From an uncultured Gammaproteobacteria bacterium (lineage in GTDB: Bacteria; Patescibacteriota; Microgenomatia; UBA12405): a DNA stretch of 64,000 nucleotides. Below are positions 1 through 40,317 of this stretch, piece after piece; the first letter of the stretch is position 1; each line of letters starts with the position of its first letter. Position numbers and translations under genes: made by a program. Location: positions 4,720 to 68,719 of the forward strand of contig CAZIZX010000005.1 in NCBI GenBank assembly GCA_964544275.1. Reading direction: 5' to 3'. The notes under the pieces are model-generated. The model did no database searches and was not told the origin of the DNA. It saw only the letters and a list, made by a program, of their open reading frames with translations.

Positions 1-1218
1 ATTAGCGATTTGGGTTCCAGGGAATTTGTGTGCGGCGATTCGGCGAATGGTTTGGTGACATTTACCTACAGCGGAAACCCAATTACTTATGGTTCGATTT
101 TAAGAGAAGACCGGTGCTGGCTAGATAGAAATTTGGGGGCTTCCCGAGTAGCCACCGGGGTTGGGGATAGTCTAGCATATGGCGACTATTTCCAATGGGG
201 GCGGGGTGGTGATGGGCACCAATCAAAAGATAGTGGCACAACTGCCACTGTTTCTGCCGCCGAAAATCCTGGACACAACAAATTCATAACTCCGGCTTCG
301 GCTCCATATAACTGGCATGCTTCAGTAAATAACGACTTTTGGCAGGGGGTCGGTGGAACAAACAATCCCTGTCCGACTGGCTGGCGACTGCCCACAGAGA
401 GTGAGTGGGAGACTGAATTCGAAAGTTGGGAATATGGTTATGGTCCACAAGAAGCTTTCTCTGTTCTCAAGTTGACGCTTAACGGGCGTCGGCGTTACTT
501 TAATGGTTCTTTTGAAGACATAAATCAGTATGGTTTTTATTGGAGCTCAGGAGTAGAGGTCACAATGGGCAGAAACTTACTTGTTCAAGTTCTTCCAAAT
601 GTAATCAATGGCTTCCGTGCCGATGGTCTGGCTGTCCGTTGTATAAAAGATCTACCACCAAACAATCCGCCCAACGCACCTTCTAACTTTGGACCTAGTC
701 ATTCTATTGATGGCTCCTGGACTACCAATGGACAGCCGACACTTACTTTTAACATCAGCGACCCAGACAGCTCTGATCAGGTGCGATACCAGATCCAGAT
801 TGCTTCCAGCGAAGATTTCGAGGTTGATTACACTTCCGGTCTTTTGGACCAAGGAGAAACTTCTTTTACTGTCGGTCAAGAACCTGGAAGCGAAGGAAGT
901 TATGCCCCGGGAAAGGGAGATACGGGCCAGAGTTTGTCAGATGGAGTTTATCACTGGCGGGTGAAAGTAATTGACCAGTATAACGCTGAGTCCGAGTGGG
1001 TATTGGCGCGCGAAGAAGATAGGGCTTTTGGGATATACTCTGTTCCCGACTGGACCGAATGTGGTGATCCGGTAACTTTTATCTACAACGACGAACCTGT
1101 AACCTATGGTTCGGTTAATGGCGCTGATGGGAGGTGCTGGTTGGATAGAAATCTGGGGGCTTCCCGAGTAGCCACCGGGGTTGGGGATAGTCTAGCATAT
1201 GGTGGTCTTTTTCAGTGA
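1..1218 (+). CDS. Large surface protein, N-terminal segment (5' end cut by window edge); FISUMP (Fibrobacter succinogenes major paralogous, TIGR02145-type) domain; ends at in-frame TGA
   Basis: Frame 1 is open from nt 1. Motifs CWLDRNLGASRV...YGDYFQWG and GGTNNPCPTGWRLPTESEWE are typical of the FISUMP domain. A second partial copy of the motif sits at the C-terminus. Confidence 0.6.
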   Translation: MSDLGSREFVCGDSANGLVTFTYSGNPITYGSILREDRCWLDRNLGASRVATGVGDSLAYGDYFQWGRGGDGHQSKDSGTTATVSAAENPGHNKFITPASAPYNWHASVNNDFWQGVGGTNNPCPTGWRLPTESEWETEFESWEYGYGPQEAFSVLKLTLNGRRRYFNGSFEDINQYGFYWSSGVEVTMGRNLLVQVLPNVINGFRADGLAVRCIKDLPPNNPPNAPSNFGPSHSIDGSWTTNGQPTLTFNISDPDSSDQVRYQIQIASSEDFEVDYTSGLLDQGETSFTVGQEPGSEGSYAPGKGDTGQSLSDGVYHWRVKVIDQYNAESEWVLAREEDRAFGIYSVPDWTECGDPVTFIYNDEPVTYGSVNGADGRCWLDRNLGASRVATGVGDSLAYGGLFQ

Positions 1219-1368
1219 GGAAGAGCTGCCGATGGGCACCAGAAAAGAAACAGTGATTCATGGTATGGGCTGGCAGATTCGGATATTCCGGGACATGGCA
1301 ATTTCATTCTTAACAGTAATTTTCCTTTCGACTGGAGCGATCCCCAAAACCCTAACCGTTGACAGGGG

Positions 1369-3228
1369 GTGGGCGGACTCAATAATCCCTGTCCTTTGGA
1401 ATGGAGAATCCCAACCCTTGGAGAGTGGGAGAGAGAAAGAGACAGTTGGGAGCCTAAAAACGCGACAGGGGCTTATGCCGGTATTAAGCTGACCGTCAGT
1501 GGCCGTCGCGACAGCTTTAACGGCGAGATTGAAAATCTTGACCGAGGCTATTACTGGTCAAGCACGCCGGGGACAGATTCGTATTTAAGTAGACTTGTCC
1601 TTTTCACTACTACCGGCGTTGGTTCTGGTTCTTCCACCCGGTCGACGGGACACTCAGTCCGCTGTATTAAACCCGCTCCTGGTTACAGACTGAACAATCT
1701 TCTCAATAATGTGTCTGCCGTATTAACTGGCAATAATCAGGATGTTTCAGACAAAGACATTAATTATCAAAATGGCAGCCAGTCGGTAACATTAAAATTC
1801 AATGGCGCTAATCTGGCTCAGGTAACGGTAAACTTTTCTCAAGATCACAATTGGGAAAATTTTGTCGGGGAGAGTAGCACTGACGTCCGTAAATCTTTTA
1901 TTAACCTCTCCGGCTTAGGAGGTCTTTCTTCCGAAAACACCCACACCCTTTTTGTTCCCGGCACTTCATCTGCCAATAAAGTCAGGATTTGTCCTGAAGC
2001 GGTTGCTCTAAACGAGGTAACAACAACATGTCCCAACGGTTACGAGCTGACGGATAACGAAAGTAACGGAGGAGTTTTGGCCGAGTTTGTAGATAACTTT
2101 TGGGTGGTTTCTGGTCTGACTGGAACCGGAGGGATGGAGATTGCTCCACCAGAACCAATCCCCTCTCAAATGATATCTCCTACTTCAAGTTCGATAAATT
2201 CTTCTGACAATTTAGGCCAAGCCGGAGACTCAAGCCAAAGTAACGCTGTTCCGGTTTGTAATGATGTTTCGCCTGGAGTTAAAGCCCCTTGGCTGTATGG
2301 AGCTCTGGCTCAGGACAATACCGATATCTTGTTGCACTTTACTCCGGCCGATATCCCGGTTGATAAATATGTCCTGGAATATGGTACTGCTTCAGGTAGT
2401 TACCAATATGGCGCTTTGGACCTGGGAGTCAATAGCCGAGAACAAATGACCTATTTGGTTTCTGCCCTGTCCCCCAATACTACTTATTACTTTAGGGTCA
2501 GAGCTGGTAATGGTTGTGCTACAGGAGAGTGGAGTAATGAAATTTCGGCCAAAACTAAAGGGTTTATTTCTTTCAACCAATTGAATATTACCCGTACAGA
2601 ACTTAATTCAATTGAGGAAGAAACACCAACGAATATCTGCCAGACTTACACAGTTAAACTGGGTGATTCTTTTTGGTCGATTGCCCAAAATGTACTGGGT
2701 GATGGCCACAAATTTATAGACCTGATTGAGCAAAACCAGGATAGATATCCGGCGTTAATTAAGTCAACCAATTTGGAAAGCGGTTGGGAGCTAGAGATAA
2801 GTTGTCAGACCCAAACCTCTTCATTTGAACCTAACCAAGAGATTCGAACTGACAGGGAGAGTCAAATAGGTCAAACATATGATTTGACTGTCAAGGTGGT
2901 TGACAAAGAGGATAAGCCTGTCAAAGGGGCCAGGGTTACCATCCATTCTCGAGTTCAGGAAGCAGTAACTGATGAAGACGGTCTGGTCAGATTTAAGGAG
3001 GTGGAAAAAGGAGATCATAAAGTCTTTATTGTTTATCAAAACTATCAAGGTGAAGAGTCGATCAATCTGACCGGTGACAATCAAGAATTCTCCCTTAAAG
3101 TGACGGTGGAGCTCAAACCAGCGCTTATCTCTTCCCAGGCTTGGATTATTATTTTTATCTTACTGACTGCCTTAATTATCTTGGGATTTTTATTAATACG
3201 GTCAAGACGAGTTGAAAAATATTCCTGA
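1369..3228 (+). CDS. Same surface protein, C-terminal segment: second FISUMP-like motif, Fn3-like, LysM-like, carboxypeptidase-regulatory-like beta-sandwich, C-terminal TM anchor
   Basis: Same frame as 1..1218, separated only by TGA at 1216-1218 and 1360-1362. Domain motifs: GGLNNPCPLEWRIPTLGEWE, YYFRVRAGNGCATGEWSNEISAKT (Fn3-like), YTVKLGDSFWSIAQNVLGDGHKFIDLI (LysM-like), YDLTVKVVDKEDKPVKGARVTIH (CarboxypepD_reg-like). Terminal hydrophobic stretch AWIIIFILLTALIILGFLLIRSRR. Confidence 0.55.
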   Translation: MGGLNNPCPLEWRIPTLGEWERERDSWEPKNATGAYAGIKLTVSGRRDSFNGEIENLDRGYYWSSTPGTDSYLSRLVLFTTTGVGSGSSTRSTGHSVRCIKPAPGYRLNNLLNNVSAVLTGNNQDVSDKDINYQNGSQSVTLKFNGANLAQVTVNFSQDHNWENFVGESSTDVRKSFINLSGLGGLSSENTHTLFVPGTSSANKVRICPEAVALNEVTTTCPNGYELTDNESNGGVLAEFVDNFWVVSGLTGTGGMEIAPPEPIPSQMISPTSSSINSSDNLGQAGDSSQSNAVPVCNDVSPGVKAPWLYGALAQDNTDILLHFTPADIPVDKYVLEYGTASGSYQYGALDLGVNSREQMTYLVSALSPNTTYYFRVRAGNGCATGEWSNEISAKTKGFISFNQLNITRTELNSIEEETPTNICQTYTVKLGDSFWSIAQNVLGDGHKFIDLIEQNQDRYPALIKSTNLESGWELEISCQTQTSSFEPNQEIRTDRESQIGQTYDLTVKVVDKEDKPVKGARVTIHSRVQEAVTDEDGLVRFKEVEKGDHKVFIVYQNYQGEESINLTGDNQEFSLKVTVELKPALISSQAWIIIFILLTALIILGFLLIRSRRVEKYS

Positions 3229-3363
3229 CCTTTATTGTTTTTTTCAACGTTCTTGATAATTTAATAAATTTTCGACATATAATTATTAGGAAGGTTCCAG
3301 ATTTACTGGCTTAGCTATATTATTAAGAATTTTAAAATGGCGACGGCAAGGATATAATTTTTT

Positions 3364-4509
3364 ATGGATTATTCACAAACAGCACTTGAAAAGCACAAGC
3401 AACATAAAGGTAAAATTGCTATTCAAAGTAAATTTGGAGAGCTGAAGACTAAAGACGATTTGAGTGTGGCTTATACTCCGGGAGTGGCAGCAGTTTCAGC
3501 GCTTTTAGCAAAGCAGCCTGAATTAGCTTCAGAATATTCAATAAAGGCCAATACTGTAGCGGTGGTGTCGGATGGATCGGCGGTTTTGGGCTTAGGAAAT
3601 ATCGGGCCATACGGAGCTTTGCCAGTAATGGAAGGAAAAGCGTTACTTTTTAAAGAATTTGCTAACGTGGACGCATTTCCGATTGTCTTGGAGACCCAAG
3701 ATCCAGATGAAATAATAAATATCGTTAAAAATATTGCTCCGGGATTTGGAGGAATAAATTTGGAAGATTTTTCAGCACCAAATTGTTTTTATATTGAAAA
3801 TAAGTTAAAAGAAATTTTAAGTATCCCAGTGTTCCATGACGATCAGCATGGAACTGCTATCGTAGTATTGGCGGCATTAATTAATGCCATAAAGTTGGCA
3901 AACAAGAATGTAAAAGAAGCAAACGTAGTGGTTTGTGGAGCCGGAGCAGCAGGAACAGCAGTGGCAAAACTGATTAGTGCTTATGGTTTTGGGTCAATTT
4001 TGGTAGTTGATTCGAAGGGAATAATCAGTAGGGACAGAACAGATTTGAGCAAGGAGAAGGAAGAATTTTTAGAATTTACCAACAAAGAAAATTTAAGTGG
4101 AGATTTGGCAACAGCGATAGCTGGACGAGACGTCTTTGTCGGAGTAAGTGGGCCGAACTTAGTAACAGAAGGAATGGTTAAATCAATGGCGGAAAAAGCA
4201 ATTATTTTTGCTATGGCCAATCCAATACCAGAAATTGATCCGAACTTAGCAAAAACGGCTGGAGCTTTTATCGTGGGTACAGGTAGAAGCGATTATCCAA
4301 ACCAAATTAACAATGTTTCAGCTTTTCCCGGAGTATTTAGAGGAGCTTTGGATAATAAGGTTGGTAAAATAACAGACAATATGAAATTGGCAGCGGCCAG
4401 GGCTTTAGCTGAATATGTTAAAGATAATGAATTAACGGTGGAAAATATCTTGCCGAGCCCTTTGAATCGAGGGGTGGTAAATATAATTGCGAAAGCGATT
4501 ACAGAATAA
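3364..4509 (+). CDS. NAD(P)-dependent malic enzyme, short form
   Basis: 381 aa. The N-terminus (GKIAIQSKF...LSVAYTPGVA) and the Rossmann motif VVCGAGAAGTAVAKL match malic enzyme. No phosphotransacetylase domain. Confidence 0.88.
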   Translation: MDYSQTALEKHKQHKGKIAIQSKFGELKTKDDLSVAYTPGVAAVSALLAKQPELASEYSIKANTVAVVSDGSAVLGLGNIGPYGALPVMEGKALLFKEFANVDAFPIVLETQDPDEIINIVKNIAPGFGGINLEDFSAPNCFYIENKLKEILSIPVFHDDQHGTAIVVLAALINAIKLANKNVKEANVVVCGAGAAGTAVAKLISAYGFGSILVVDSKGIISRDRTDLSKEKEEFLEFTNKENLSGDLATAIAGRDVFVGVSGPNLVTEGMVKSMAEKAIIFAMANPIPEIDPNLAKTAGAFIVGTGRSDYPNQINNVSAFPGVFRGALDNKVGKITDNMKLAAARALAEYVKDNELTVENILPSPLNRGVVNIIAKAITE

Positions 4510-4547
4510 TAAACTTCTTAAAAAATTGCCATGATAGACTAAGTGAA

Positions 4548-5387
4548 ATGTCGAACGTAAGTAGATTATATGATGATTATGGTGAATATAACATCTGGTT
4601 TAATCAACTGAACACGCCATCGCCATCGATAGAATATGCCTGGAGGAGAACGAAATTGCTACTGGAAACGGAAGCCGGTAAAGAAATCAACCGGTTATTA
4701 GCCAGAAAAAAAGAGGTAAGAGTGCTGGATATCGGTTGCGGTAATGGAGCAGTTTTGATCAGACTGGCGCTGAAATTTAAGAAAAATAAAAAGGTAAAAT
4801 TTAAGGGTGTGGATTTGTCGAAAGCATTTGTAGATTACGGTAATATAGCGGCCAAATATAAAGGGCTAGCGGGGACAGTCTCTTTTGAACAGCTGGATAT
4901 AGAAAAAAGTGACTTGAAAGGAAAGTACGACGTAATTTTGAGCTCCGAAGTGCTGGAGCATTTACAGGAAGCAGAGAAGTTTTTGATGAAAGTGGTTAAT
5001 AGTTTGAAAAAAGGCGGAGTATTATTATTGTCCACTCCAAACAGTAATAATTGGGCTAAATATCCGTTAGGATGGATCAAAGGTCTGGTAATAAAAATTA
5101 ATAATAAAGACTGGGAAAAGCAATTGATCAAGAAGGAAGAGAAGTACAAATTATCAGAACAAGAACAACATATTAAGGTTTTTGGACTGGGGGAACTTAA
5201 AAATTTATTGGAGAAAGCCGGATTAAAAGTATACGCTTCTCCTAGAAGTACCAGTTTTTTTGGCGGCAAATTCTTGGATGACGCCCCCTTATTATTGGGC
5301 TTGTCAATGATCGCAGATTCAGTCTTAAATTTATTGCCAATTAATCAGGTGGGTTGGGACTTGATAGTTTTTAGCAGAAAAAGATGA
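4548..5387 (+). CDS. Class I SAM-dependent methyltransferase
   Basis: Motif I VLDIGCGNGAVL and acidic motif II; 279 aa. Confidence 0.7.
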   Translation: MSNVSRLYDDYGEYNIWFNQLNTPSPSIEYAWRRTKLLLETEAGKEINRLLARKKEVRVLDIGCGNGAVLIRLALKFKKNKKVKFKGVDLSKAFVDYGNIAAKYKGLAGTVSFEQLDIEKSDLKGKYDVILSSEVLEHLQEAEKFLMKVVNSLKKGGVLLLSTPNSNNWAKYPLGWIKGLVIKINNKDWEKQLIKKEEKYKLSEQEQHIKVFGLGELKNLLEKAGLKVYASPRSTSFFGGKFLDDAPLLLGLSMIADSVLNLLPINQVGWDLIVFSRKR

Positions 5388-5474
5388 GACGGCAGATGGA
5401 TCTAAAGCATATTTTTCACATGAAAATATACCAATTACTTGATCCTGAGGAAAAAATTAATTTATAATATAGGC

Positions 5475-5906
5475 ATGAAAATGTTGGTCATATATGATTC
5501 GAATTACGGTAATACGAAATTATTAGCGGAAATTATGGCCAAAGAACTGGGTAAGAAGACTAGGGTAGTAAAAGTAGATGAAATGAATAGCAAAGACCTT
5601 GAAGAGCTGGATTTATTGGTGGTGGGGAGTCCAATTATTGGGTGGAGACCAACAGAGAAAATGGGTGGATTTTTGACGGACCTGAAAAGCGGTCAGTTAA
5701 GAGGGGTGAAAGCGGCGGCTTTTGATACCAGAGTTAAGGTGTGGTTTTCGGGGAATGCGGCCAAAAAAATTGCAGCACAATTGGAAAAGGCGGGGGCTAA
5801 ATTAATATCTGATCCGGAAGCATTTTATGTAGCTGGAAGAGAAGGGCCATTGGTGGATGGTGAAGAAAAGAGAGCTTTGGAATGGATAAAAGGAATTAGG
5901 AGATAA
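5475..5906 (+). CDS. Flavodoxin-like protein
   Basis: MKMLVIYDSNYGNTKLLAEIMAKELG is a flavodoxin-type FMN-binding N-terminus. Start chosen at the internal ATG at 5475. Confidence 0.6.
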   Translation: MKMLVIYDSNYGNTKLLAEIMAKELGKKTRVVKVDEMNSKDLEELDLLVVGSPIIGWRPTEKMGGFLTDLKSGQLRGVKAAAFDTRVKVWFSGNAAKKIAAQLEKAGAKLISDPEAFYVAGREGPLVDGEEKRALEWIKGIRR

Positions 5907-5909
5907 AAA

Positions 5910-7313
5910 TTAAAGCGGTTCAAAATAAAGAAACCACTGGTTTTGGTGTTTGTTTAGTATGATGTTGATTAATTGTCCGTTAATATTGATTAAGCTTTGG
6001 GATTGAGTGGCGAACGGCGAATAAGGCGGTGGTTCGAGAACCAGCAATTGGTTTGGGTGGCTTGGATTAATCAGCGGCGCAATTTGATCATAGCCGCCAA
6101 TCGTCATGACTTCAATTTCCTGAATCTGTCCGCGGCTGACATATTCCGACAAGGTTTTGAGGGTGCTGCCTGGATCCGGCCAGTAAGTTGACAGGGAAAG
6201 GGGTAGATAACTGATAAGAATGAGCCAAAGAAATATGGGTTTGCTTTTGAATAAGGTGACGGTGAAAATTACGAAAAGAGGAATGATCGGAATAAAGTAC
6301 CTTGGCCAAAAATCAACCAGAGAACAGGTAATAATATATACTAAAAATACACCTAAAAGGAACAGGAATGATTTGTTTTGTTTTTGACGGTTGAAGATAT
6401 TTTTGACGATTACCAAGGCAGATAATAACCCAGTGGGAAGAAGGAGCGACCACTCTTTAAAGGGAAAGATGCCGTTGTTGTAATGAGTGGTGGAACGAAG
6501 GAGTATTGATTGGATTAAATTAAAAGGAAAATTGGTGCCTTTTTGATTTACCTGAAAGTCAATTACTTTTTGGTGGAGGCGGAGCCAAGGTATGGGGTTG
6601 GGATGCTTTAGAAAATAACAAAAGTAAGCAGACAAGTAGCCTAAGAAAAAGAAACCGGAATATAAAAGTACTTGTTTAATGTTTTTGGTGGTGACGATTA
6701 ACCAGAAAGTAATAAAGAACAACAGGACTAGACTGAAAAGCGGGGGCTTTGTTCCAGCCATTAACCCGAGGAAAAAACCTGATAGCATTAAAACCCGACG
6801 ATCCGATGATTGAAGATAATTGACGAAAAATAAAACTGATATGAGAAAAAATAGAGCCAGGGGCAGGTCGAGCATGGTCTGTTGGAGCTGAAAAATTACC
6901 AGGGGGTTAAGTATAAGTAGTAATAAGGAAATCAATATGAGAGAAGAATTTTTGAAGAGCTGTTTTGAGAGTAAATAAAAAACTAAAATGAATGATAAAT
7001 AAAAGAGCAATGAGGCAAAATATGGATTACCAAAATGAGCGGCAAAAAAACCGTAAATATATTTGCCTAAAGGTGGTACCCAGTAATCAATATTGAACGG
7101 GTTTTCACCATTAACCAAACGAAAACCAACATAACGGTAAACTCCTTCGTCAGATATTATCCGAGGACTGTTGGGGATATTCCACTGGGAGGTGTAATAA
7201 TAATTTTCCCAGTATTGAGGGTTGAATTTAAAACTAAAAATCCAGGAAGATATCCAAAACACGAACGACAGGCTTGACAATAGTAAAACAATTTGTAAAC
7301 TCTTAACTTTCAT
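5910..7313 (-). CDS. Polytopic membrane protein, GT-C (PMT/ArnT-like) glycosyltransferase fold
   Basis: 467 aa, more than 10 predicted TM helices, DE-containing first loop (ISDEGVYRY) as in GT39/GT83 enzymes. Confidence 0.45.
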   Translation of the reverse strand: MKVKSLQIVLLLSSLSFVFWISSWIFSFKFNPQYWENYYYTSQWNIPNSPRIISDEGVYRYVGFRLVNGENPFNIDYWVPPLGKYIYGFFAAHFGNPYFASLLFYLSFILVFYLLSKQLFKNSSLILISLLLLILNPLVIFQLQQTMLDLPLALFFLISVLFFVNYLQSSDRRVLMLSGFFLGLMAGTKPPLFSLVLLFFITFWLIVTTKNIKQVLLYSGFFFLGYLSAYFCYFLKHPNPIPWLRLHQKVIDFQVNQKGTNFPFNLIQSILLRSTTHYNNGIFPFKEWSLLLPTGLLSALVIVKNIFNRQKQNKSFLFLLGVFLVYIITCSLVDFWPRYFIPIIPLFVIFTVTLFKSKPIFLWLILISYLPLSLSTYWPDPGSTLKTLSEYVSRGQIQEIEVMTIGGYDQIAPLINPSHPNQLLVLEPPPYSPFATQSQSLININGQLINIILNKHQNQWFLYFEPL

Positions 7314-7524
7314 AATTACAAGAAAGAACTAGTTTATTTTAATTAGCAAGTTGATAATTCTCCAGAAGATGATGAAAATAGTGATCAATCTTACATATTT
7401 CTTATTGTTTTCTTACATAGTTATTACCTGAAATAAACATAATGAAGCAGAGCGCTTAGTAGGATGTTTGGGTCTGGGTGTTTTTTGGGGGAATTTGTGG
7501 TAATTTATAATCAAATTTAAATTA

Positions 7525-8682
7525 TTGATGTTAGAAGACGTATATAATTCATCATTAAAGTTTCTGTTCCCTTTGAATCTGAAAAGTACGTTCGAAATTG
7601 TGGGGACAGAGGCAATGAAGCTGGTAGGGGCAAAATATAGCTCGGTGTTTATGATGGTTGATGGTCAACTGAAGAGAATGTTTGCCTCCTCCCCTATTTT
7701 GTATGATATAAAAACCCGGAAAAAAGGCGTTACTTATAGGGCTTATAAAAGCGAAAGGGTGGTGCTGCTAAAGAATGAAGAGTTAAAAAAAATTCATCCA
7801 GAATTTAAAAAAATTAAAGTGGGAGAAGATGTGAGCATACCGTTAACTTACAATAAAATCACTTTGGGTGTTTTGTCAATCATATCGGAAGAAGGGAGAG
7901 CTTTTAGTAAGGATGATATTGACAAGTTAAAATTATTTTCACCCCTGGCCATGATGGCATTGAGGAAGGCGTTGTTGTACAACGAGCTCCATCGGGCATT
8001 ACGGGAGAGAGATTTGTTTATATCGATAGCATCGCACGAGCTGAAAACTCCGCTAACATCGATTTTTGCTTATAGTCAGCTGTTGGCAAAAAAAATTAGA
8101 AAAGGAGAATTGCCAAGAAACGAAGACGTGAATAAGCTTTTGGTAGAAGAAGCAAGGTTGAATAAGTTAGTTTCTGATTTTCTGGAGGTAAATAAGATTA
8201 AGACCGGAAGAATTCAATTTGAAATGGAAAAGGTTGACTTGGTGGAAGTGGCGGCGGGAGCAAAAGCAAGCTTTGAGAACGTTGATAAAAGTCATAAAGT
8301 AGTTATCGCCAGAAAGGTTAAAGAATTGTGGGTTTGGGGTGATCAATACAAGATGGTACAAGCGGTTCTTAATATCCTTAATAATGCAAGTAAATATTCG
8401 CAAAAAAACAGTTTGATTAAAATAAGTTTTGTTGAGGATGAGTCTTGTTATGGAATAAGGATTAAAGATGAAGGGGTGGGTATCTCGGAGACAGATCTAC
8501 CGTTTGTTTTTGACAGGTTTTATCGGGCTGAAAATATGAAGGAGTCAGGGATGGGAATTGGTTTGTATTTGGTAAAATATATTATCCTAAAGCATGGGGG
8601 GAAAATTGATATTAAATCGAGGGTTGGTAAAGGAACAACCGTAAGCATACTGTTACCGAAGCTAAATGAACAGAGGACCTGA
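7525..8682 (+). CDS. Cytoplasmic sensor histidine kinase (GAF-like N-terminus, HisKA, HATPase_c)
   Basis: H-box SHELKTPLTSI, N-box LNNASKYS, G-boxes DEGVGI and GMGIGLYLVKYIILKHGG. No TM segments. Confidence 0.85.
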   Translation: MMLEDVYNSSLKFLFPLNLKSTFEIVGTEAMKLVGAKYSSVFMMVDGQLKRMFASSPILYDIKTRKKGVTYRAYKSERVVLLKNEELKKIHPEFKKIKVGEDVSIPLTYNKITLGVLSIISEEGRAFSKDDIDKLKLFSPLAMMALRKALLYNELHRALRERDLFISIASHELKTPLTSIFAYSQLLAKKIRKGELPRNEDVNKLLVEEARLNKLVSDFLEVNKIKTGRIQFEMEKVDLVEVAAGAKASFENVDKSHKVVIARKVKELWVWGDQYKMVQAVLNILNNASKYSQKNSLIKISFVEDESCYGIRIKDEGVGISETDLPFVFDRFYRAENMKESGMGIGLYLVKYIILKHGGKIDIKSRVGKGTTVSILLPKLNEQRT

Positions 8683-9937
8683 AAGAAAAAGGATTGAAGA
8701 TATTACAATCAGCCCAGAAAGGTTAACTTACCTGCGAACAAGACAAAACGAACTGTGGAGAGAGATGGAGGGATTCGAGAGAGTGTATTTTATCCAGGAA
8801 GGGTCAGCAAATTTGACACAGTGCCTGAGACCGTTAATCAGGAAATTCGAAGAGCAGGTAGCACGTCTGGCTGATGGCAATATTCCAGACATGGACAGTT
8901 ATGTGATATTTCTTGAAGGACTACCTGGGTCAGGTAAAACTTACATTGCCGATAAGATTAGAGAGGTAGTGGAAATTACGTCGGAAAGAATGAAGATCTT
9001 GAAAAATACGGAGGTAGATTTTCGTTATGTTCCATGGGAAGAATCAGAAGATGAACTGAGATATAGCGGAGGAATCGCCCGGAGAGGCATGGCGCCGGAC
9101 ACGGTGGAAGACTTGGAAATAGTAGGAGCGTGGATGACAGAAAAGGTAATCCGACCAATCAGGGAAGGCCGAAAAAATTTGATAATACTGGTAGAAAAAC
9201 CGGGGGGAACTTCAGTCAACTTAGAAGACGGGTTGGTGGTGAGCCGTCCATACGCTCCGACGATGAGAAGAGATTTAATAAAAAGAGAAGGGGTTTTTCA
9301 AGGAATACAAGAAGGAAGAATATCGGTTGCCAGTATCGGAGTGGTGGCCGGACCAATGATGGAAATTTTGGGTTATTACCGGACTTATGTCAAAAAACTT
9401 TTTATTGATTTTACTGAAGGCAGGTTTGACGAAGATGGAGCAATTAGGGAGGCTGACCGGATTGGACGATTGTTTGGTATTCCTGAGGCGGATAAGATTG
9501 ATACTTTAGCTGCTATGCGTCGAGTGGGAGAGGGAGGAAGCGTGGAAACAATCAATCGAGCGAGGGTAGCGGCAGATGAGCTAATCAGAAATTTAAGAAA
9601 AAGAAAAGTGTTGACCTATCCTCAATATTTGGACAGGGTACTGAATAACCAAGTTCTGGGGCGAAAGAATTTTTTTGAAGACTTGTTGTCGAGTTTCAGA
9701 TCACTGGCTGAGCAATCAGAACAGGTGGCTGAAATAATGGATATCACGACAGGCAACCCAAAAAGGGATTACTTGGAAATTTTGTGTAAAAATTTGGTGG
9801 CAGCCAGTGTTTTGAACCTAGATTTTAAAGGCTCAGACCGACAGGTTATTTTGCTTAATAATCCTGATATCAGGGTGAAAAGTATTAGAAGCCTGAGATA
9901 TTACCTAGAGCAAAGAGCGAATAGAAGCTGGAGATAA
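8666..9937 (+). CDS. P-loop NTPase / kinase-like hypothetical protein, translationally coupled to the histidine kinase
   Basis: Walker A LEGLPGSGKTY; overlaps the HK stop by 17 nt. Otherwise no recognisable family. Confidence 0.5.
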   Translation: MNRGPERKRIEDITISPERLTYLRTRQNELWREMEGFERVYFIQEGSANLTQCLRPLIRKFEEQVARLADGNIPDMDSYVIFLEGLPGSGKTYIADKIREVVEITSERMKILKNTEVDFRYVPWEESEDELRYSGGIARRGMAPDTVEDLEIVGAWMTEKVIRPIREGRKNLIILVEKPGGTSVNLEDGLVVSRPYAPTMRRDLIKREGVFQGIQEGRISVASIGVVAGPMMEILGYYRTYVKKLFIDFTEGRFDEDGAIREADRIGRLFGIPEADKIDTLAAMRRVGEGGSVETINRARVAADELIRNLRKRKVLTYPQYLDRVLNNQVLGRKNFFEDLLSSFRSLAEQSEQVAEIMDITTGNPKRDYLEILCKNLVAASVLNLDFKGSDRQVILLNNPDIRVKSIRSLRYYLEQRANRSWR

Positions 9938-10016
9938 TATAAAATTCTTACGATATGATCCCTTTTCATATGCTATGATTTAAATCGCTTGATAGAAGTT
10001 AAATTTTAATTAGACG

Positions 10017-10178
10017 ATGTCAAATAAAATTATTCTACCGATTGTTTATATGGGAATTTTTTTAGTATCTATGATTATTGGCAAGAGTTATGCCATAAGA
10101 ATTGAGGATATGGGACAATTTCTGGGATTAGGCGGGGTGGCAGTTGGGTATTTTGTGGGGAAAAAGATTAAGAAATAA
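10017..10178 (+). CDS. Possible small membrane protein (53 aa), below the ORF-track cutoff
   Basis: ATG at 10017, TAA at 10176; encodes MSNKIILPIVYMGIFLVSMIIG...GLGGVAVGYFVGKKIKK with two hydrophobic segments. Lies in an otherwise empty intergenic region. Confidence 0.25.
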   Translation: MSNKIILPIVYMGIFLVSMIIGKSYAIRIEDMGQFLGLGGVAVGYFVGKKIKK

Positions 10179-10214
10179 TTGATTTCGGGTTAGCTTCGGG
10201 TTTATGATAAGAAT

Positions 10215-11375
10215 ATGGATTTATCGGCGGATCAGAAAAAGGCATTGAAAGAACTAGAGGAGTGGTTTGGCAACACAGAGAGAGAACAATATATAACCCT
10301 GGGCGGGTATGCAGGAACCGGAAAGACGACCTTGCTATCGATATTAAGACAAAGGCTTGATAAAAAGAACAAAAAGTTAAAGGTGGCCTTTGCCAGTTAT
10401 ACCGGCAAAGCAGCCAGGGTGTTGAGAGGAAAATTGATGGAGCAAGAAAGTTTATACCTTCAGGATACAGTTGGAACAATACATTCATTAATTTACTCCC
10501 CCGTTGTAGATGGCAAAAAGGAAATTATTGGCTGGAAGAGAAGGGAGAGTATTGAGGCTAACTTGATTATTATTGACGAAGCTTCAATGGTGGATGATAA
10601 TATCTGGCGGGATCTGAGAGCTTATGGCAAACCAATTATTGCGGCAGGCGACCATGGCCAATTGCCGCCAATTAGTGGGTTTTTTAATTTAATGGAAAAC
10701 CCCCTACTTAGGTTAGAAGAGATTCACCGGCAGGCCCGAGAAAACCCAATTATTAAACTTTCGATTTTGGCCAGAGAAAGAGGGATAATCCCAGCGATTA
10801 CTTATGGGGATAATGTTAAAAAAATCCGAAAAGAAAACCCTGACAGTCAATTTGAAGTAGAAGAATGGCTGGCAAACTATAATGCTAATACCCTGGTGCT
10901 ATGCGGGTATAATTCAACCCGGGTACGATTAAATAATTATCTGAGAAAAGCGCTGGAGTTTTCTTCCGAAGAACCGGAGGTAAATGACCGAGTAATATGT
11001 TTGCGTAACAACCATGAAAAAGAGGTATTTAATGGAATGTTGGGGGTGGTGATGGATATTGTGCCAAAAAATGAAGATTGGTATAAGGCTGAGATCTTGA
11101 TGGATGGAGAGGAGAACCTGTACGAAGGATTAATTTATAAAAAACAATTTAACAGCAGGGAGCCGATGAATTTTAGTAATAAGCGGTATTTGACAAAAAT
11201 AGGTGACCTTTTTGATTTCGGGTATGCATTAACAGTCCATAAAGCGCAAGGCAGTCAAGCTAAAAGAGTAATTCTATTTGAAGAGAGGTTTGCCAAAATG
11301 AGTGATGATGAATGGCGAAGGTGGTTATATACGGCGGTTACTCGAGCGGAAGAAGAATTATTAATAATAGGTTAG
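10215..11375 (+). CDS. RecD/Dda-like superfamily 1 DNA helicase (AAA_30 + UvrD_C_2 type), short form
   Basis: Walker A GGYAGTGKTT, Walker B IIDEASMV, GDHGQLPPI, C-terminal YALTVHKAQGSQAKRVIL. Confidence 0.8.
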   Translation: MDLSADQKKALKELEEWFGNTEREQYITLGGYAGTGKTTLLSILRQRLDKKNKKLKVAFASYTGKAARVLRGKLMEQESLYLQDTVGTIHSLIYSPVVDGKKEIIGWKRRESIEANLIIIDEASMVDDNIWRDLRAYGKPIIAAGDHGQLPPISGFFNLMENPLLRLEEIHRQARENPIIKLSILARERGIIPAITYGDNVKKIRKENPDSQFEVEEWLANYNANTLVLCGYNSTRVRLNNYLRKALEFSSEEPEVNDRVICLRNNHEKEVFNGMLGVVMDIVPKNEDWYKAEILMDGEENLYEGLIYKKQFNSREPMNFSNKRYLTKIGDLFDFGYALTVHKAQGSQAKRVILFEERFAKMSDDEWRRWLYTAVTRAEEELLIIG

Positions 11376-11378
11376 ATT

Positions 11379-12524
11379 TTGTATAATTGGCAGATGATTA
11401 AAAAGGCGCTTTTGGTAATTTGCCTGTTTTTGGGTTTGACGGGAGGAGTTTGGGCACAAGAAGAAGACATTCCTTTTCGAATAGAGGAAAGCTTGGAAGC
11501 GAGAGTGGTAGAAATTATCGAAGAAGGTGAGGTGATAATTTTTGACCAGGCCCAGAATTATCAAAAGTTAAGATTAGAGTTTACCAAGGGAACGCTTAAA
11601 GGAGAGAGACGGGAAATCGAGGTGGGGATGACGCCAATGGTGCAAGTGGTGGAATACAAACTGAATGACAAGGTGGCGGTGGTGAGGCAAAAGGATTTGA
11701 ATGGAGAGGAGATGCTGACAATAATTGATTTTGTGAGAAGAGATGCCTTGGCTTTGTTGTTTATTGTTTTTTTGATAATTACACTGCTGGTGGCAAAGAA
11801 AAGAGGGCTTACTTCGGTAATAAGTATGATTATTACATTTGTGGTGATTTTTTTGTTTATCTTGCCCCGGATTTTAAATGGAGGCAACCCGGTTTTGATA
11901 ACAATTATGGGAGCCTTGGGAATTATCCCTTTCAGTTTCTACCTGTCCCACGGAAATAATAAAAAAACAACGGTGGCTATATTGTCAACCATAATATCTT
12001 TTATTATTACAGGGTTGTTGGCTTTAATTTTTGCTCAGTTAACAAGATTGACAGGACTGGCGTCGGAAGAGGCCGGGATGCTTATGTCTATAAAACAGGG
12101 AGAGATTGACATGAAAGGTTTACTGTTGGCTGGTATCCTAATTGGGACTTTGGGTATATTGGATGACATTACTATTTCACAAGCAGCAATTGTGGAACAA
12201 TTAGCGCAGGCTTCCGAAGGGATTAAGTTTAAGGAATTATACACACGAGCGATGAGGGTGGGAGAAGACCATATTGCATCGATGATCAATACTTTGGTGT
12301 TAGTCTATGCGGGAGCGTCATTGCCCCTACTTTTAATCTTTATAAATAACCCACATCCTATATCGGAAGTGATAAGTTATGAATTTATCGCTGAAGAAGT
12401 GGTAAGGACTTTGGTGGGAAGCATCGGACTAATTGCAGCAGTACCGATCAGCACTTTGCTGGCTTGTCTTGTAATACGGAAGCGTGCTTTTGCTAGAATA
12501 GGCAATGAGATCCAAGGTAAATAA
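11379..12524 (+). CDS. Multi-pass membrane protein, YibE/F-like
   Basis: Signal peptide, ~120-aa extracytoplasmic region, then 7-8 TM helices including GILDDITISQA. Confidence 0.4.
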   Translation: MYNWQMIKKALLVICLFLGLTGGVWAQEEDIPFRIEESLEARVVEIIEEGEVIIFDQAQNYQKLRLEFTKGTLKGERREIEVGMTPMVQVVEYKLNDKVAVVRQKDLNGEEMLTIIDFVRRDALALLFIVFLIITLLVAKKRGLTSVISMIITFVVIFLFILPRILNGGNPVLITIMGALGIIPFSFYLSHGNNKKTTVAILSTIISFIITGLLALIFAQLTRLTGLASEEAGMLMSIKQGEIDMKGLLLAGILIGTLGILDDITISQAAIVEQLAQASEGIKFKELYTRAMRVGEDHIASMINTLVLVYAGASLPLLLIFINNPHPISEVISYEFIAEEVVRTLVGSIGLIAAVPISTLLACLVIRKRAFARIGNEIQGK

Positions 12525-13764
12525 TAGAATCTATTATTTGGGTTTATTGATATTAATCGGGGCGTATATTTTGTTGAGGGTGGTTGGTTTTGAAGAGAAA
12601 ATGACATATCAAATGGACCAGGGAATACATCTGATGGAAAGTTATGAGATGGTATTAGAAAAGAAACCCAGGCTGATTGGACCAATGGTTACATCAAGAG
12701 TTGTGAATGGCAAGGGATTTTTTATCGGTCCTTATTATTACTACGCATTGGCAGCGTCGGGTTTGATTACGAGATGGAACCCAGTGGCTATCAGTGTGTT
12801 ATGGCTGGTAGCAGAAGGAGCGGTAGTGTTGATTTTTGTTGGATGGGTCAAGGGAAAATTTGGAAATTTAATATCTTGGGCAATACTTTACATGGTTGCC
12901 ACATCGCATTTTTTTATCGTACACAGTCGATTTTTTTGGAACCCTCATTTTTTGTTACCGTTGGGGTTGCTAGGAATAATTTTGCTGGATAAGTTTACAA
13001 CCAAAAAAAGACGATTGTATTTATATTGTTTTTTTTGGTTGTGGGGATTGGCTTTTAGTTTTCATTATATGGCAGTGTTTTGGGCTTTGCCGTTGGTTTA
13101 TTACTGGTGGAAAAGCAAGTCCCCCGTTAAGCTGACTGATTTATTAATGATGGTAACCATGTTTGTCGGGGGTGATTTGTTGTTTTTTGTTTTTGAAGTA
13201 AGACATGATTTTTATAATCTTACTACCGCCTGGCAATCGCTGGTAAATAATGTTGGAGGCGGCCAAGAACTACATTATTTTATATATCCTCTAGTCGGAC
13301 CAATTCTGGTAGCTGTGGCCGCTATTTTTAGCAAACTAAACAAAAAAAGATTTGGATGGGTAGCAATATTGGGACTGGGTGTTTTGGCTGGAATTGGCCA
13401 AAAAAAATATATTAATCTAGAAGTGCCCTACCGGCATCCGGCCGGATGGAGTTATCCATTAATTACAAGAACGGTTGAGGAAATACTGAAAGAAGGCTGC
13501 CAGGAGAGTTTCAATGTGGCCAGTACAATAAGCGGCGATACCAGGGCTTATGATTTAAGATTTTTGCTAACTAAAAATGGCTGTCGACCAATGGGGGTAG
13601 AGGATTATCCGCTGGCGGAAAAATTGTTTTTGATATCACCCCAAAATAGAAATCCGATGACTGAAAAGATATGGGAGGTGAGAAGTATGGGAAATATTGA
13701 AATAGAAAAGCAGACGGATATAGGTAATATGACGCTTTTTCAATTAAAAAAAGTTATCAATTAA
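12505..13764 (+). CDS. Polytopic membrane protein, putative GT-C-type glycosyltransferase
   Basis: 419 aa, many TM helices, acidic first loop (MDQGIH). Confidence 0.4.
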   Translation: MRSKVNNRIYYLGLLILIGAYILLRVVGFEEKMTYQMDQGIHLMESYEMVLEKKPRLIGPMVTSRVVNGKGFFIGPYYYYALAASGLITRWNPVAISVLWLVAEGAVVLIFVGWVKGKFGNLISWAILYMVATSHFFIVHSRFFWNPHFLLPLGLLGIILLDKFTTKKRRLYLYCFFWLWGLAFSFHYMAVFWALPLVYYWWKSKSPVKLTDLLMMVTMFVGGDLLFFVFEVRHDFYNLTTAWQSLVNNVGGGQELHYFIYPLVGPILVAVAAIFSKLNKKRFGWVAILGLGVLAGIGQKKYINLEVPYRHPAGWSYPLITRTVEEILKEGCQESFNVASTISGDTRAYDLRFLLTKNGCRPMGVEDYPLAEKLFLISPQNRNPMTEKIWEVRSMGNIEIEKQTDIGNMTLFQLKKVIN

Positions 13765-30590: not shown

Positions 30591-32999
30591 ATGGATTTTT
30601 TAAAAAAAATAATAAAGAAGGAAGAGAAGGCCGATATGCCGAAAGCTAGTGCTTCGGTGACGGCGAATAATAATGGAAGCAAGCCTTTTGAGGAAGGTTT
30701 GGTGTCGACAAAGGATATTATTGCACCATCAGCCATAGAGGTTGATTTTAACCACATAAGGATTGATGATAAATACTATCGGACATTGTTTGTGGCCGGG
30801 TATCCAAGATTTGTGGGAATAAACTGGTTGTCACCGCTAATTAACTTTGATGCTTCACTAAATGTGTCAATGTTTATTTACCCGACGGATGGGAAAGAAA
30901 TTTTGGATGATTTGAGAAGAAAAATTACGGAAATGGAGGCAGAGCTGAGTACAGATATTCAAAGAGGACGGATCGTGAATCCGGCTACTCAGGCTAAATT
31001 AGAAGATGCTTTGTCTTTGCAAGCAGACCTAGTCAAAGGGGAGGAGCGGTTTTTTCAATTCGGACTTTACATCACTATATCGGCGGAATCGGTGGAAGAG
31101 TTAGACCGGATAAATAAAAACATCGAAGCGTCTTTGGGAGCATTATTAATTATCAGCAAGAAAGCAACTCTTCAAATGGAAGATGGATTTATGACCACTC
31201 TACCCATATGCAGCGACAAACTCAGCATCACTAGGAACATGGACACGACCTCACTGGCAACAACCTTCCCATTTGTGTCGTCTGACTTGTCCGATAACAA
31301 AGGGATAATGTACGGAATAAACCAACACAACGGGTCGTTGGTCATTTTCGACCGATTCAGCATGCCGAATTATAATTCGGTAGTATTTGCTACGGCCGGT
31401 GCCGGTAAGTCCTACATGATTAAGCTGGAAGCAATCAGATCATTAATGTTTGATACAGACGTGATCGTGGTCGACCCTGAAAATGAATACAGAAGTTTGT
31501 GTGATGCGGCAGGCGGCCAGTACATTGCTTTTGGCTATAGTGAGAATTCTAAAATCAATCCATTTGATCTATCTTTGACAGTGGAAGAGGAAGGGGAAAA
31601 TTCGTTGAATTCCAAGATACTATCATTACATAAGTTGTTTAAGCTAATGGTGGGAGAAATGACGCCGATTGAGGAGTCAATTTTGGACCGGGCAATAATG
31701 GATGCTTATAAAATGAAGGGGATTACTCCAGATCCAGATACACAAAGTAAGGAATCTCCACTGATTGAGGATTTATATAAGTCGCTTATCGGAACAGAGA
31801 GCAAGGAAGCTCAGAGTTTGGCAGCCAGGTTAGAAAAATATATTAAGGGTTCTTTTGCGGGTATATTTAACCAAAAAACTACTGTAAATTTAAACAACCG
31901 GTTTGTGGTGTTTGGCATTAAAAACTTAGAAGAAAGTCTAAGACCAATTGCCATGCATATAATTCTGGACTACATCTGGACCACGGTTAAAAAAGAGCTT
32001 AAAAAGAGAATTATGATCGTGGATGAGGCCTGGTATTTGATGCAATATCCAGATTCGGCGGCGTTTTTGAGAGGGGTAGTTAAACGAGGTAGAAAATACT
32101 ACTTAGGAGTGACGACTATTACCCAGGATGTGGATGATTTTTTGGAAACACCGTATGGTAAGGAAATTGTGACCAACAGTTCAATACAGATATTGCTAAA
32201 GCAACACAGTGCGGCCATAGATAAAATTGGTGAGGTTTTTTATCTTTCTGAAGGTGAAAAACAATTATTGCTGACGGCGGACAAGGGAGAAGGTATTTTC
32301 TTTGCCGGGCAAAATCATGTGGCTATAAAAGTGATCGCTTCAGAAGATGAACACAAATTAATAACATCGAACCCAGAAGAGATATTGAAGATGAAGGCGG
32401 AGGGAAAGGTAGTAACAATGGAAAATAAAAACTTGCTTATTTCAAATCAAACACTGCCGATCAACCCAAGCAATATTCAAGTAGAAGAAGAGCCGGAGAA
32501 GGTTGTTTCTCCAGTAGTAGAAGTGAAGAATGAAATAAAACAAGCTGAGACAGGAAAAGGTGAGGAAAAGCCAATAGAAACAAAACCATTAATTGATAGT
32601 TCAAGTGCCCGGTTCAGAACAGAGGTGGTCGGAGGGGATGACGAAAATGAAGGATTGCTTCAAAGAAAAATTAATGAAATGGAAAAAGTTGAGCAGGATA
32701 AAATAGATGATTTTATCAGGCAAGAAGTAGAGGCAGTTAAAGATGAAGAAGAGGAAATACCCTTGAGAGAATCACAACCGACACCATCTTTTGAAGCGCC
32801 AAAGGTGGTAAAACTTGGAGGAGGAAATATCGGGAGTAAGCCAATTTTTGTCAGTCAAGAACCGAAAATACAACAACCCCCACAATTGAGTAATAAGCCT
32901 AAGCCGGATTTTGAAGAAAACAACCAAGATAAAAAGATAGATACCAATAAAGATGATAAAAACGATTATGACTCACTTTTCGGTGATGGAATTGTTTAA
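30591..32999 (+). CDS. virB4: VirB4/TraC/PrgJ-family type IV secretion ATPase with ~200-aa low-complexity C-terminal extension
   Basis: Walker A ATAGAGKSY, Walker B IMIVDEAWYLM. Overall 802 aa with CagE/TrbE/VirB4 domain order. E/K/P-rich tail from about aa 600. Confidence 0.85.
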   Translation: MDFLKKIIKKEEKADMPKASASVTANNNGSKPFEEGLVSTKDIIAPSAIEVDFNHIRIDDKYYRTLFVAGYPRFVGINWLSPLINFDASLNVSMFIYPTDGKEILDDLRRKITEMEAELSTDIQRGRIVNPATQAKLEDALSLQADLVKGEERFFQFGLYITISAESVEELDRINKNIEASLGALLIISKKATLQMEDGFMTTLPICSDKLSITRNMDTTSLATTFPFVSSDLSDNKGIMYGINQHNGSLVIFDRFSMPNYNSVVFATAGAGKSYMIKLEAIRSLMFDTDVIVVDPENEYRSLCDAAGGQYIAFGYSENSKINPFDLSLTVEEEGENSLNSKILSLHKLFKLMVGEMTPIEESILDRAIMDAYKMKGITPDPDTQSKESPLIEDLYKSLIGTESKEAQSLAARLEKYIKGSFAGIFNQKTTVNLNNRFVVFGIKNLEESLRPIAMHIILDYIWTTVKKELKKRIMIVDEAWYLMQYPDSAAFLRGVVKRGRKYYLGVTTITQDVDDFLETPYGKEIVTNSSIQILLKQHSAAIDKIGEVFYLSEGEKQLLLTADKGEGIFFAGQNHVAIKVIASEDEHKLITSNPEEILKMKAEGKVVTMENKNLLISNQTLPINPSNIQVEEEPEKVVSPVVEVKNEIKQAETGKGEEKPIETKPLIDSSSARFRTEVVGGDDENEGLLQRKINEMEKVEQDKIDDFIRQEVEAVKDEEEEIPLRESQPTPSFEAPKVVKLGGGNIGSKPIFVSQEPKIQQPPQLSNKPKPDFEENNQDKKIDTNKDDKNDYDSLFGDGIV

Positions 33000-35833: not shown

Positions 35834-36228
35834 GATTAATTAATAAAAAAATCTTATATATCGGGTTAGCTTTAGTATTCTTGCTAATCCTTCCTTGGGG
35901 AGGAGGCGGAAGTAAAGTAGAAAAAGACGAGACGGAATTGGGAGGTGGAGAGGTAATAATTGATCCAAATGATTATTCTGGATTCGGACCAACAGAAGAA
36001 GAGGCCTTAGAATTAATTGATGAATTCGAGTCGAACAAAAATGATTATCCTCTGTGGAATAAACTACCTTATGAAGGAAGAGGGTATAAAATAAGCAAAT
36101 ATTCAAAACCGCTGACGGTGGTGGTTTATCCGATAGGGTTAGATAAAGAAGTGGTAGAGAGGGAGGTAAGGCAATGGATTAAAGATAATGGCGGGGATGA
36201 GGTAAGGCATCAAATAGAATGGCGGTAA
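35824..36228 (+). CDS. Small secreted/membrane-anchored protein, paralog A
   Basis: N-terminal TM/signal; shares DYPLW..LPY.G.GY...Y...L.VV....DKE.VE..V..WIK.NG.D...H.IEW with the next gene. Confidence 0.5.
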   Translation: MQIRLINKKILYIGLALVFLLILPWGGGGSKVEKDETELGGGEVIIDPNDYSGFGPTEEEALELIDEFESNKNDYPLWNKLPYEGRGYKISKYSKPLTVVVYPIGLDKEVVEREVRQWIKDNGGDEVRHQIEWR

Positions 36229-36272
36229 TATATTTAATTTGAATTTTTAAATTAAATCCCTAGAATTAGATA

Positions 36273-36680
36273 ATGAATGGGAGTTTTATGAAAAGGTACT
36301 TTTTGATAATAGTGTTGACCTTTGTAGCTACTGGAATGGTGGTGACTAGACTTAAATACCAAGAAGATGGTTTTGAAAGAGAAGTTATTGAGACTAAAAA
36401 CTTAAATACAGAAATTGAGAGTGAACCAGACTTGATAATTACTCCGACTGAGGCGGTTGAGTCGGAAGACGAAGTGTTTGAACTTGACCCCGATTATCCT
36501 TTATGGAGATCTTTGCCTTATTACGGTAAAGGTTATATTGTAGATAGATATGTTGAAAGTTTAAAATTGGTAGTAAAAATTAAAGGTATTGATAAAGAAA
36601 TAGTGGAAGAGGACGTTTATGAATGGATTAAAGAAAATGGAGTTGATCCAGAGAGTCACACAATCGAATGGGAGGATTAA
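36273..36680 (+). CDS. Small secreted/membrane-anchored protein, paralog B
   Basis: Same conserved C-terminal motif as paralog A. Its stop overlaps the dnaN stop on the opposite strand. Confidence 0.5.
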   Translation: MNGSFMKRYFLIIVLTFVATGMVVTRLKYQEDGFEREVIETKNLNTEIESEPDLIITPTEAVESEDEVFELDPDYPLWRSLPYYGKGYIVDRYVESLKLVVKIKGIDKEIVEEDVYEWIKENGVDPESHTIEWED

Positions 36681-39464: not shown

Positions 39465-39519
39465 AATATTGGTTGTAAGACAGGCAGATTTGAGGCTGTC
39501 AGAGGCAGGAAAAATTAAC

Positions 39520-39528
39520 TTATCCACA
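39520..39528. promoter_or_regulatory. Consensus DnaA box TTATCCACA upstream of dnaA (a second box TGTGGATAT lies at 39608-39616 upstream of rpmH)
   Basis: Exact 9-mer match in the divergent dnaA/rpmH promoter region. Confidence 0.5.
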
Positions 39529-39769: not shown

Positions 39770-39782
39770 AGAAGTCAGATAA

Positions 39783-40312: not shown

Positions 40313-40317
40313 CTTTT

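Follow-up and report, generated by a model that had tools for sequence, protein, structure and literature searches.

Does a surface-protein gene that carries two in-frame TGA codons, both where tryptophan is expected, still yield a full-length product, or is it a gene in the course of being lost? We addressed this question at the start of a 64,000-nt stretch of DNA (hereafter the window; assembly GCA_964544275.1, contig CAZIZX010000005.1, positions 4,720 to 68,719 of the forward strand), where the interrupted gene spans 1..3228 (+ strand) and has its 5' end cut by the window. Our analysis indicates that this is probably an accessory surface-protein gene of a Microgenomates/Shapirobacteria-like bacterium of the candidate phyla radiation (CPR) that has been broken by two successive nonsense mutations. 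The event is best read as ordinary and very recent nonsense inactivation, not recoding.

The interrupted gene and its conserved tryptophan positions

Translation of frame 1 over nt 1-3300 agreed with the description in an earlier note made from the letters of the window: the frame is open from nt 1 to a terminal TGA (3226..3228, + strand), with two internal TGAs only. The first of these (TGA1; 1216..1218, + strand, codon 406) occupies the invariant Trp of a Q-W-G-R motif, and the second (TGA2; 1360..1362, + strand, codon 454) that of a W-Q-G motif. The length of ~1,076 codons given in the note is that of the frame inside the window, and the whole gene is longer. Public gene calls record it as two products, a 658-aa protein that terminates at TGA1 (P0002) and a 619-aa protein called from a GTG (1369..3228; P0001), both encoded on one 85,785-bp NCBI contig. 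P0002 supplies 252 extra N-terminal residues, comprising a basic-hydrophobic signal or transmembrane (TM) segment and a LamG-type domain, and with this extension counted the uninterrupted frame would total ~1,327 codons. Its parts would follow one another as signal/TM segment, LamG, FISUMP-1, Ig-like domain, FISUMP-2, spacer, fn3, LysM, CarboxypepD_reg and TM anchor.

Profile searches of the part within the window were done with both stops read as W, and all matches lie on the + strand. They detected FISUMP domains (PF09603, 45.8 bits, cut-off 33.9; TIGR02145, 49.9 bits, cut-off 41.65) in two copies, of which copy 1 (31..645, residues 11-215 of the window frame) is intact and copy 2 (1060..1668, residues 354-556) holds both stops, with an Ig-like domain between them (727..1002; PF25788, 27.5 bits, cut-off 27.4). 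A C-terminal anchoring module (2311..3198) combines fn3 (2311-2550), a LysM-like stretch (2647-2796), CarboxypepD_reg (2884-3084) and a TM helix followed by basic residues (~3139-3198). Both fn3 and CarboxypepD_reg exceed their profile cut-offs, the LysM-like stretch scores slightly under its own (18.3 bits), and the TM helix was read from the sequence; the domains named in the earlier note (two FISUMP, Fn3, LysM and TM) hold broadly, with LysM and TM at this lower grade.

When the codons of the two FISUMP copies are aligned under guidance of the protein sequences, no gaps occur between the two sites and TGG codons of copy 1 fall opposite both stops, TGG 196..198 opposite TGA1 and TGG 340..342 opposite TGA2 (+ strand), each exactly 1020 nt upstream. 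The note had made this match for the second stop and had considered the first not confidently alignable, a doubt that the ungapped alignment removes. We further built a family alignment of 344 homologous FISUMP domains out of 122 proteins from a homology search, in which the TGA1 column is W in 335 of 339 domains and the TGA2 column is W in all 343, confirming that both TGAs stand at conserved Trp. Among the 40 family columns conserved at ≥95%, four are invariant Trp, and the stop sites are two of these; copy 1 matches 38 of the 40 near-invariant columns and copy 2 matches 36. On this alignment, the ancestral state of both sites can be given as TGG with as much certainty as reconstructions of this kind allow.

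The course of events that we propose starts from two successive G-to-A transitions, each of which would have changed an invariant Trp codon from TGG to TGA within FISUMP copy 2. TGA1 would have come first and is common to the two sampled populations, and TGA2 would have followed in an already interrupted frame, where it is still polymorphic. Translation would stop at the UGA at 1216 and give an exported 658-residue LamG-FISUMP-Ig fragment, which would retain a 66-residue stump of copy 2 but none of the anchoring parts (LysM and TM) that hold the full-length protein in place. The downstream 620 codons would then be an untranslated remnant and most likely silent; no in-frame start occurs between TGA1 and the GTG at 1369, and the downstream 2 kb are without a signal peptide. 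P0001 is not a gene in its own right, because its C-terminal module normally closes a long exported protein. The downstream part would look intact only because the inactivating events were very recent, as the note had also proposed, and the well-kept columns of copy 2 are in line with this. The order of the mutations, their direction and the loss of function are what we infer here, and the peptides that would span the two sites with Trp restored are VATGVGDSLAYGGLFQWGR and WQGVGGLNNPCPLEWR.

Independent assemblies, strain variation and the intragenic repeat

Two Logan contigs, each from a different sequencing run, encode P0001. One (L001, SRR8925753) corresponds to window 1173-13228 and is identical over 12,056 nt, and the other (L002, SRR27370451) shows three differences from window 1177-4501, including a G, not A, at position 1362, which makes site 2 a TGG (Trp). 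TGA1 is present in the window, SRR8925753 and SRR27370451, and TGA2 in the window and SRR8925753, so the population heterogeneity (TGG/TGA) that the note had proposed exists at site 2. Both Logan contigs carry the two sites on the same uninterrupted DNA as the C-terminal module and the adjacent genes. Assembly error does not account for the stops.

Two further contigs extend the comparison, one from SRR27370451 (L014; 12 differences from window 34313-47478) and one from a third run (L015, SRR27197518; one difference from window 2606-4992). At position 4465, the third run agrees with SRR27370451, and the window allele is in the minority. Between the window strain and the SRR27370451 strain, we counted 15 single-nucleotide polymorphisms (SNPs) over 16.5 kb (99.9% identical), all of which are transitions (8 synonymous, 4 non-synonymous, 2 intergenic and 1 nonsense, the last being TGA2); at 12 of the 15 sites the window base is A or T. 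TGA1 would be older than the split of the two populations, and TGA2 is a young segregating variant, most probably derived by TGG>TGA in the window lineage, with its polarity taken from the mutation bias. As an observation in its own right, the same SNPs suggest that recent mutation in the window lineage has been transition-only and strongly biased toward GC>AT. A literature search for the run accessions SRR8925753 and SRR27370451 returned no match.

Next to TGA1 lies one arm of a perfect direct repeat, 49 nt long where the note had counted 48, with its copy-1 arm at 134..182 and its copy-2 arm at 1154..1202, the latter 14 nt before the stop (both + strand; encoded peptide of the copy-1 arm, LGASRVATGVGDSLAYG). 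The arms are 1020 nt (340 codons) apart and in register, no further occurrence was found in the window, and none of 100 shuffled controls contained a 49-nt repeat. Within the repeat, 15 consecutive codons are identical, whereas outside it identical residues of the two copies use the same codon in 34 of 79 cases (43%), giving a chance of P ~3e-6 for such a run. The FISUMP copies are ~59% identical at the nucleotide level, and identity declines to this value immediately past nt 182/1202; the near-identity that had been described for nt 133-196 therefore applies to the 49-nt core and is overstated beyond it. As judged from its codons, the repeat is taken to be a real short gene-conversion tract between the domain copies. 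The tract is located where the domain is most conserved (block CWLDRNLGA...AYG..FQWGR), and it adjoins TGA1 because the Trp of that site is part of the same block. We found no evidence that the tract caused or repaired TGA1, 14 nt short of which it ends, and the exact repeat core was absent from the JGI metagenome contigs searched.

Of the two explanations that the note had offered, gene conversion plus nonsense decay is the one supported, by the real tract, the stops at invariant Trp, the polymorphic TGA2, the normal use of TGA as a stop and the lack of a mid-gene TGA in other genes of the window, whereas a regulated or programmed event is not. A template/variable repeat of a diversity-generating retroelement was also considered for the two arms and rejected, as the core is perfect and the flanking mismatches involve all bases; no reverse transcriptase domain occurs among the 41 window proteins scanned. 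Separately, FISUMP copy 1 contains an 11-bp hairpin (228-253; AGAUAGUGGCA-caac-UGCCACUGUUU) ~30 nt past its Trp codon. The 70-nt segment around it is much more stable than shuffled controls (z = -4.2; 0/200 shuffles as good), and copy 2 has nothing comparable.

The repeat also bears on whether the stops could be a sequencing or assembly artefact, either as base errors at one or both TGAs or as a chimeric join across the repeat. Metagenome-assembled consensus sequences can hold errors, the repeat interrupts de Bruijn graphs, and it contains the starts of both Logan contigs (1173 and 1177, 30 and 26 nt before its end); moreover, TGA2 probably rests on a single read set, SRR8925753 being 100% identical to the window. 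We nevertheless consider an artefact very unlikely, given that TGA1 was recovered in two independently assembled runs and TGA2 in two assemblies, and that both stops lie downstream of the repeat on contiguous DNA, so that a wrong path through the repeat could not have created them. The contig starts themselves imply that the k-mer graph branches inside the repeat and thus that the reads contain a genuine repeat. The contig index has no record of P0002 as an exact product; the upstream half of the gene is hidden from contig look-ups because the intragenic repeat fragments k-mer assemblies.

Stop-codon function, alternative decoding and foreign composition

Stop usage was counted on a greedy set of 52 long open reading frames, which end at TAA (34), TAG (10) or TGA (8), the TGA count including the two internal stops and the terminator of the interrupted gene. 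Four conserved genes end at TGA, namely those for a histidine kinase (HATPase_c matched to 109/111), an IMPDH/GMP reductase (341/345), KhpB/Jag (R3H matched to 59/60, with a second stop directly after) and FtsH (M41 matched to 190/191). The last Pfam profile in each reaches within 1-4 positions of its end, as expected from the statement in the note that ftsH and the histidine kinase gene terminate normally at TGA. Readthrough of these TGAs would extend the proteins by 0-19 codons, and the kinase by 84, into the next gene. This genome uses TGA as a functional stop codon. The note had also suggested a tally of in-frame TGA elsewhere, and we scanned frames bounded by TAA/TAG only across the 64 kb; no other real gene with a mid-gene TGA was found, and the remaining internal-TGA cases were gene ends or non-coding frames. 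Because there is no other mid-gene TGA in 64 kb, tolerance of TGA is specific to the interrupted gene and not genome-wide. Genome-wide TGA reassignment was rejected on these grounds: the window has no TGA at Trp codons across many genes, as genetic code 4 would have, and TGA serves in it as a terminator.

UGA is also the codon for selenocysteine (Sec), and some CPR lineages read it as Gly. Insertion of Sec, or of Gly as in code 25, at the two UGAs is hardly credible in this gene, where both positions are invariant Trp and never Cys, Sec or Gly in the family, where neither stop is followed by a selenocysteine insertion sequence (SECIS) or a stable hairpin, and where conserved genes of the same genome rely on TGA for termination. 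A permissive Rfam search of nt 1-3600 returned no SECIS and only two chance-level long non-coding RNA matches, and the 70 nt 3' of TGA1 and TGA2 fold no better than shuffled controls (z -0.51 and +1.08, respectively). Sec was effectively refuted, and a structured readthrough signal was rejected along with it.

In leaky readthrough, a near-cognate tRNA-Trp(CCA), perhaps a variant prone to readthrough such as one with a 4-bp anticodon stem, would insert Trp at both UGAs. It would give a little full-length, correctly folded and anchored protein, and the stops would attenuate a costly or dangerous surface protein. Readthrough gives back the wild-type sequence only where a UGA stands at an invariant Trp codon, as both do here; the frame is otherwise intact, and TGA is a minority stop in the window. 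In-frame stops are reported to be common across bacteria, to be short-lived and possibly to lower expression (Belinky et al. 2021, PMC7918605). However, two stops in series would reduce the yield to about the square of the single rate, or ~0.4% even at 6%, which is near null. Stimulatory structure is lacking 3' of either stop, TGA2 is not kept between 99.9%-identical strains, and tolerated UGAs should scatter over the Trp codons of other genes, whereas both are in one gene of a genome whose conserved genes depend on TGA terminators. The contexts of the two stops (TGA-G and TGA-C) are the same as those of genuine TGA terminators, and no suppressor tRNA was found in the window, whose sole tRNA is Ile-GAT. 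We regard leaky readthrough as unlikely, and it is quite improbable that UGA is decoded as Trp to an appreciable extent in this Microgenomates lineage, which would make TGG>TGA changes near-neutral hypomorphs. The regulated or programmed event that the note had put forward found no positive support, since the 3' structure and SECIS are absent and TGA2 is not strain-conserved; the strain difference at TGA2 and the lack of a stimulatory 3' structure or context likewise separate this gene from cases of programmed readthrough.

The odds of two TGG>TGA hits depend on the mutation spectrum. The reconstructed frame contains 30 Trp, 44 Gln and 9 CGA codons in 1075. Under a spectrum without bias, TGG>TGA accounts for 6.5% of nonsense mutations and both hits have a chance of ~0.4%; the values rise to 22% and ~5% with strong transition and GC>AT bias, and to ~27% and ~7% with transitions only, as the 15 SNPs suggest. 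Two TGG>TGA hits are mildly unusual and within what a large scan turns up. Among the GC>AT transitions possible downstream of TGA1, ~7% yield a stop, and one nonsense mutation among two downstream SNPs is unremarkable without selection and unexpected under selection.

Several points weigh against recent inactivation as we propose it. Both lesions are of the kind that near-cognate tRNA-Trp readthrough repairs exactly, the interrupted frame contains no frameshifts and no TAA or TAG, and copy 2 is well preserved apart from its stops. The two-hit chance falls to 0.4-5% under less transition-biased spectra, and is lower still when frameshifts are counted. Only two SNPs lie downstream of TGA1 (1 nonsense, 1 synonymous), too few to measure relaxed selection; the direction at site 2 rests on mutation bias, and the tRNA-Trp and release factor 2 (RF2) genes of the genome lie outside the window. 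The N-terminal product may also be functional, and 'pseudogene' may be too strong a word for the 5' half.

The composition of the gene differs from that of its surroundings. Across 42 other genes, the + strand GC skew at third codon positions (GC3 skew) is +0.27 to +0.70 regardless of gene orientation and the corresponding AT3 skew is mostly positive, whereas the interrupted gene has values of ~-0.07 and ~-0.25, respectively, and a GC content of 45-49% against ~40%. Every 450-nt bin of the gene has skews below the range of the other genes (bin GC 43-50%). The gene is compositionally foreign. It is not an obvious chimera, because an independent Logan contig joins it to the same neighbours. Named homologues of FtsH and the malic enzyme place the host among Microgenomates, near Shapirobacteria, and in three relatives (malic enzyme 79-84% identical) the genes upstream of malic enzyme are unrelated; none of the three has a FISUMP gene next to malic enzyme, which is weak evidence as synteny is poor overall. 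These results suggest an accessory gene, probably acquired or reshuffled recently, for which we infer a horizontal origin, and accessory genes are the class most often lost. With regard to composition, the interrupted gene alone is without the extreme strand asymmetry of the window.

A foreign gene could in principle have come from a cell or phage that uses code 4, in which case the TGAs would be original Trp codons, and the other strain would have acquired its TGG at site 2 by repair after the transfer. The composition would suit such a donor, the direction of the site-2 SNP is unproven, and a recent report describes full reassignment of UGA to Trp in a Patescibacteriota family, JAKLIH01 (class Minisyncoccia), that is without RF2 and UGA terminators (PMC13092985). 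The gene itself speaks otherwise: its own terminator is TGA, standing where the C-terminus of a homologue ends, which would not be expected of a code-4 donor, TGA occurs at only 2 of 30 Trp codons, and the SNP bias (window A/T at 12/15) favours TGG>TGA. The host, moreover, belongs to the Microgenomates/Shapirobacteria group and not to Minisyncoccia, and we consider a code-4 donor extremely unlikely.

Homologues, neighbourhood and comparison with known systems

A homology search of 5.8 billion proteins yielded 700 homologues at E <= 1e-5. For the FISUMP part, no protein above about 50% identity was found among the 5.8 billion sequences, and the best FISUMP homologues are only 35-54% identical. 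No close orthologue was available for a TGG/TGA comparison, the protein next in rank being 40-54% identical. GTDB species representatives held no close orthologue and matched the C-terminal module alone (34-48% identity), exact-pattern scans of JGI metagenomes for close orthologues found none, and a PDB sequence search with FISUMP copy 1 gave no match. The C-terminal module shares 47% identity with the end (L003 9947-10969) of an intact Patescibacteria protein of 1100 aa, whose N-terminal ~750 residues are completely different from the interrupted gene, and 44% with a Levybacteria protein. The alignment with the 1100-aa protein reaches residue 1075/1075 of the interrupted gene and 1097/1100 of the homologue. 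Apart from the question of the stops, the fn3-LysM-CarboxypepD_reg-TM module seems to act as a cassette for C-terminal anchoring that is portable among surface proteins of Patescibacteria.

The remainder of the window has features of its own. Over 3300-64000, the + strand is purine-rich, with a GC skew of 0.2-0.5 in 2-kb windows; skews in the relatives are weaker (absolute ~0.1-0.26) and near zero in a Levybacteria locus (L004). An origin-type neighbourhood lies at 36677-41607, with dnaN and dnaA on the - strand followed by rnpA, yidD, yidC and jag/khpB on the + strand, and eight DnaA-box-like sites flank dnaA, with clusters at 37958-38174 and 39520-39616. In the dnaA region, GC skew keeps its sign and only steps from ~+0.3 to ~+0.5, which leaves two options, an origin at another place or an unusual mode of replication or mutation in this genome. 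Parts resembling a type IV secretion system (T4SS) occur at 30591-32999, 55367-57940 and 57979-58593, the set comprising a VirB4/TraG-type P-loop ATPase, an 857-aa SLT lytic transglycosylase-domain protein and a T4SS pilin-like protein, and they are adjoined by large proteins without a Pfam match (33023-35833, 51354-53603 and 53729-55345). At 49606-51309 (- strand), a gene for a 567-aa protein, covered end to end by DUF6909 (E = 1e-166), overlaps the end of ftsH by 12 nt at its 3' end.

Read as recent inactivation, the locus would be a well-dated case of a surface-protein gene being lost, with one stop common and the second still segregating. It also indicates that adjacent metagenome-assembled 'genes', such as P0002 and P0001, can be halves of one newly broken gene, and that a perfect 49-nt intragenic repeat suffices to fragment k-mer assemblies. 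Were readthrough true, the stops would either tune the expression of a surface protein or mark an early phase of ambiguous decoding on the way to UGA=Trp reassignment, and the gene would be a natural double-UGA readthrough reporter in an uncultivated CPR bacterium, with a bearing on how UGA-to-Trp reassignments start.

Among known systems, near-cognate readthrough by tRNA-Trp (E. coli, Salmonella, B. subtilis, and the 4-bp-stem tRNA-Trp; PMC13092985) shares with this gene a UGA at a Trp codon, and differs in that here elevated readthrough is not in evidence, the stops are in tandem and TGA terminates conserved genes. Genetic code 4 (Mycoplasmatales, Zinderia, Hodgkinia and JAKLIH01) resembles it in having TGA at conserved Trp, and JAKLIH01 belongs to the same phylum, Patescibacteriota; in the window, by contrast, one gene only is affected, TGA terminates FtsH, IMPDH, the histidine kinase, KhpB and the interrupted gene itself, and the organism is Microgenomatia-like, whereas JAKLIH01 is in Minisyncoccia. 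The 49-nt tract is comparable to intragenic conversion tracts between tandem domain repeats in being in register and without synonymous differences in otherwise ~59%-identical copies, although it is very short and its donor direction is not assignable. As a protein, the product resembles the FISUMP/Fib_succ_major surface proteins (TIGR02145, PF09603) in its two FISUMP domains, invariant motifs and multidomain exported architecture, and stands apart through a Patescibacteria-type fn3-LysM-CarboxypepD_reg-TM anchor that is absent from the other matches. The nonsense-split bacterial genes (PMC7918605) have in common with it stops that are sense-derived, young (of an age like that of SNPs) and lineage-specific, a frame that is otherwise intact, and gene calls that report two open reading frames; the difference is that both hits here are TGG>TGA at the invariant Trp of one domain.

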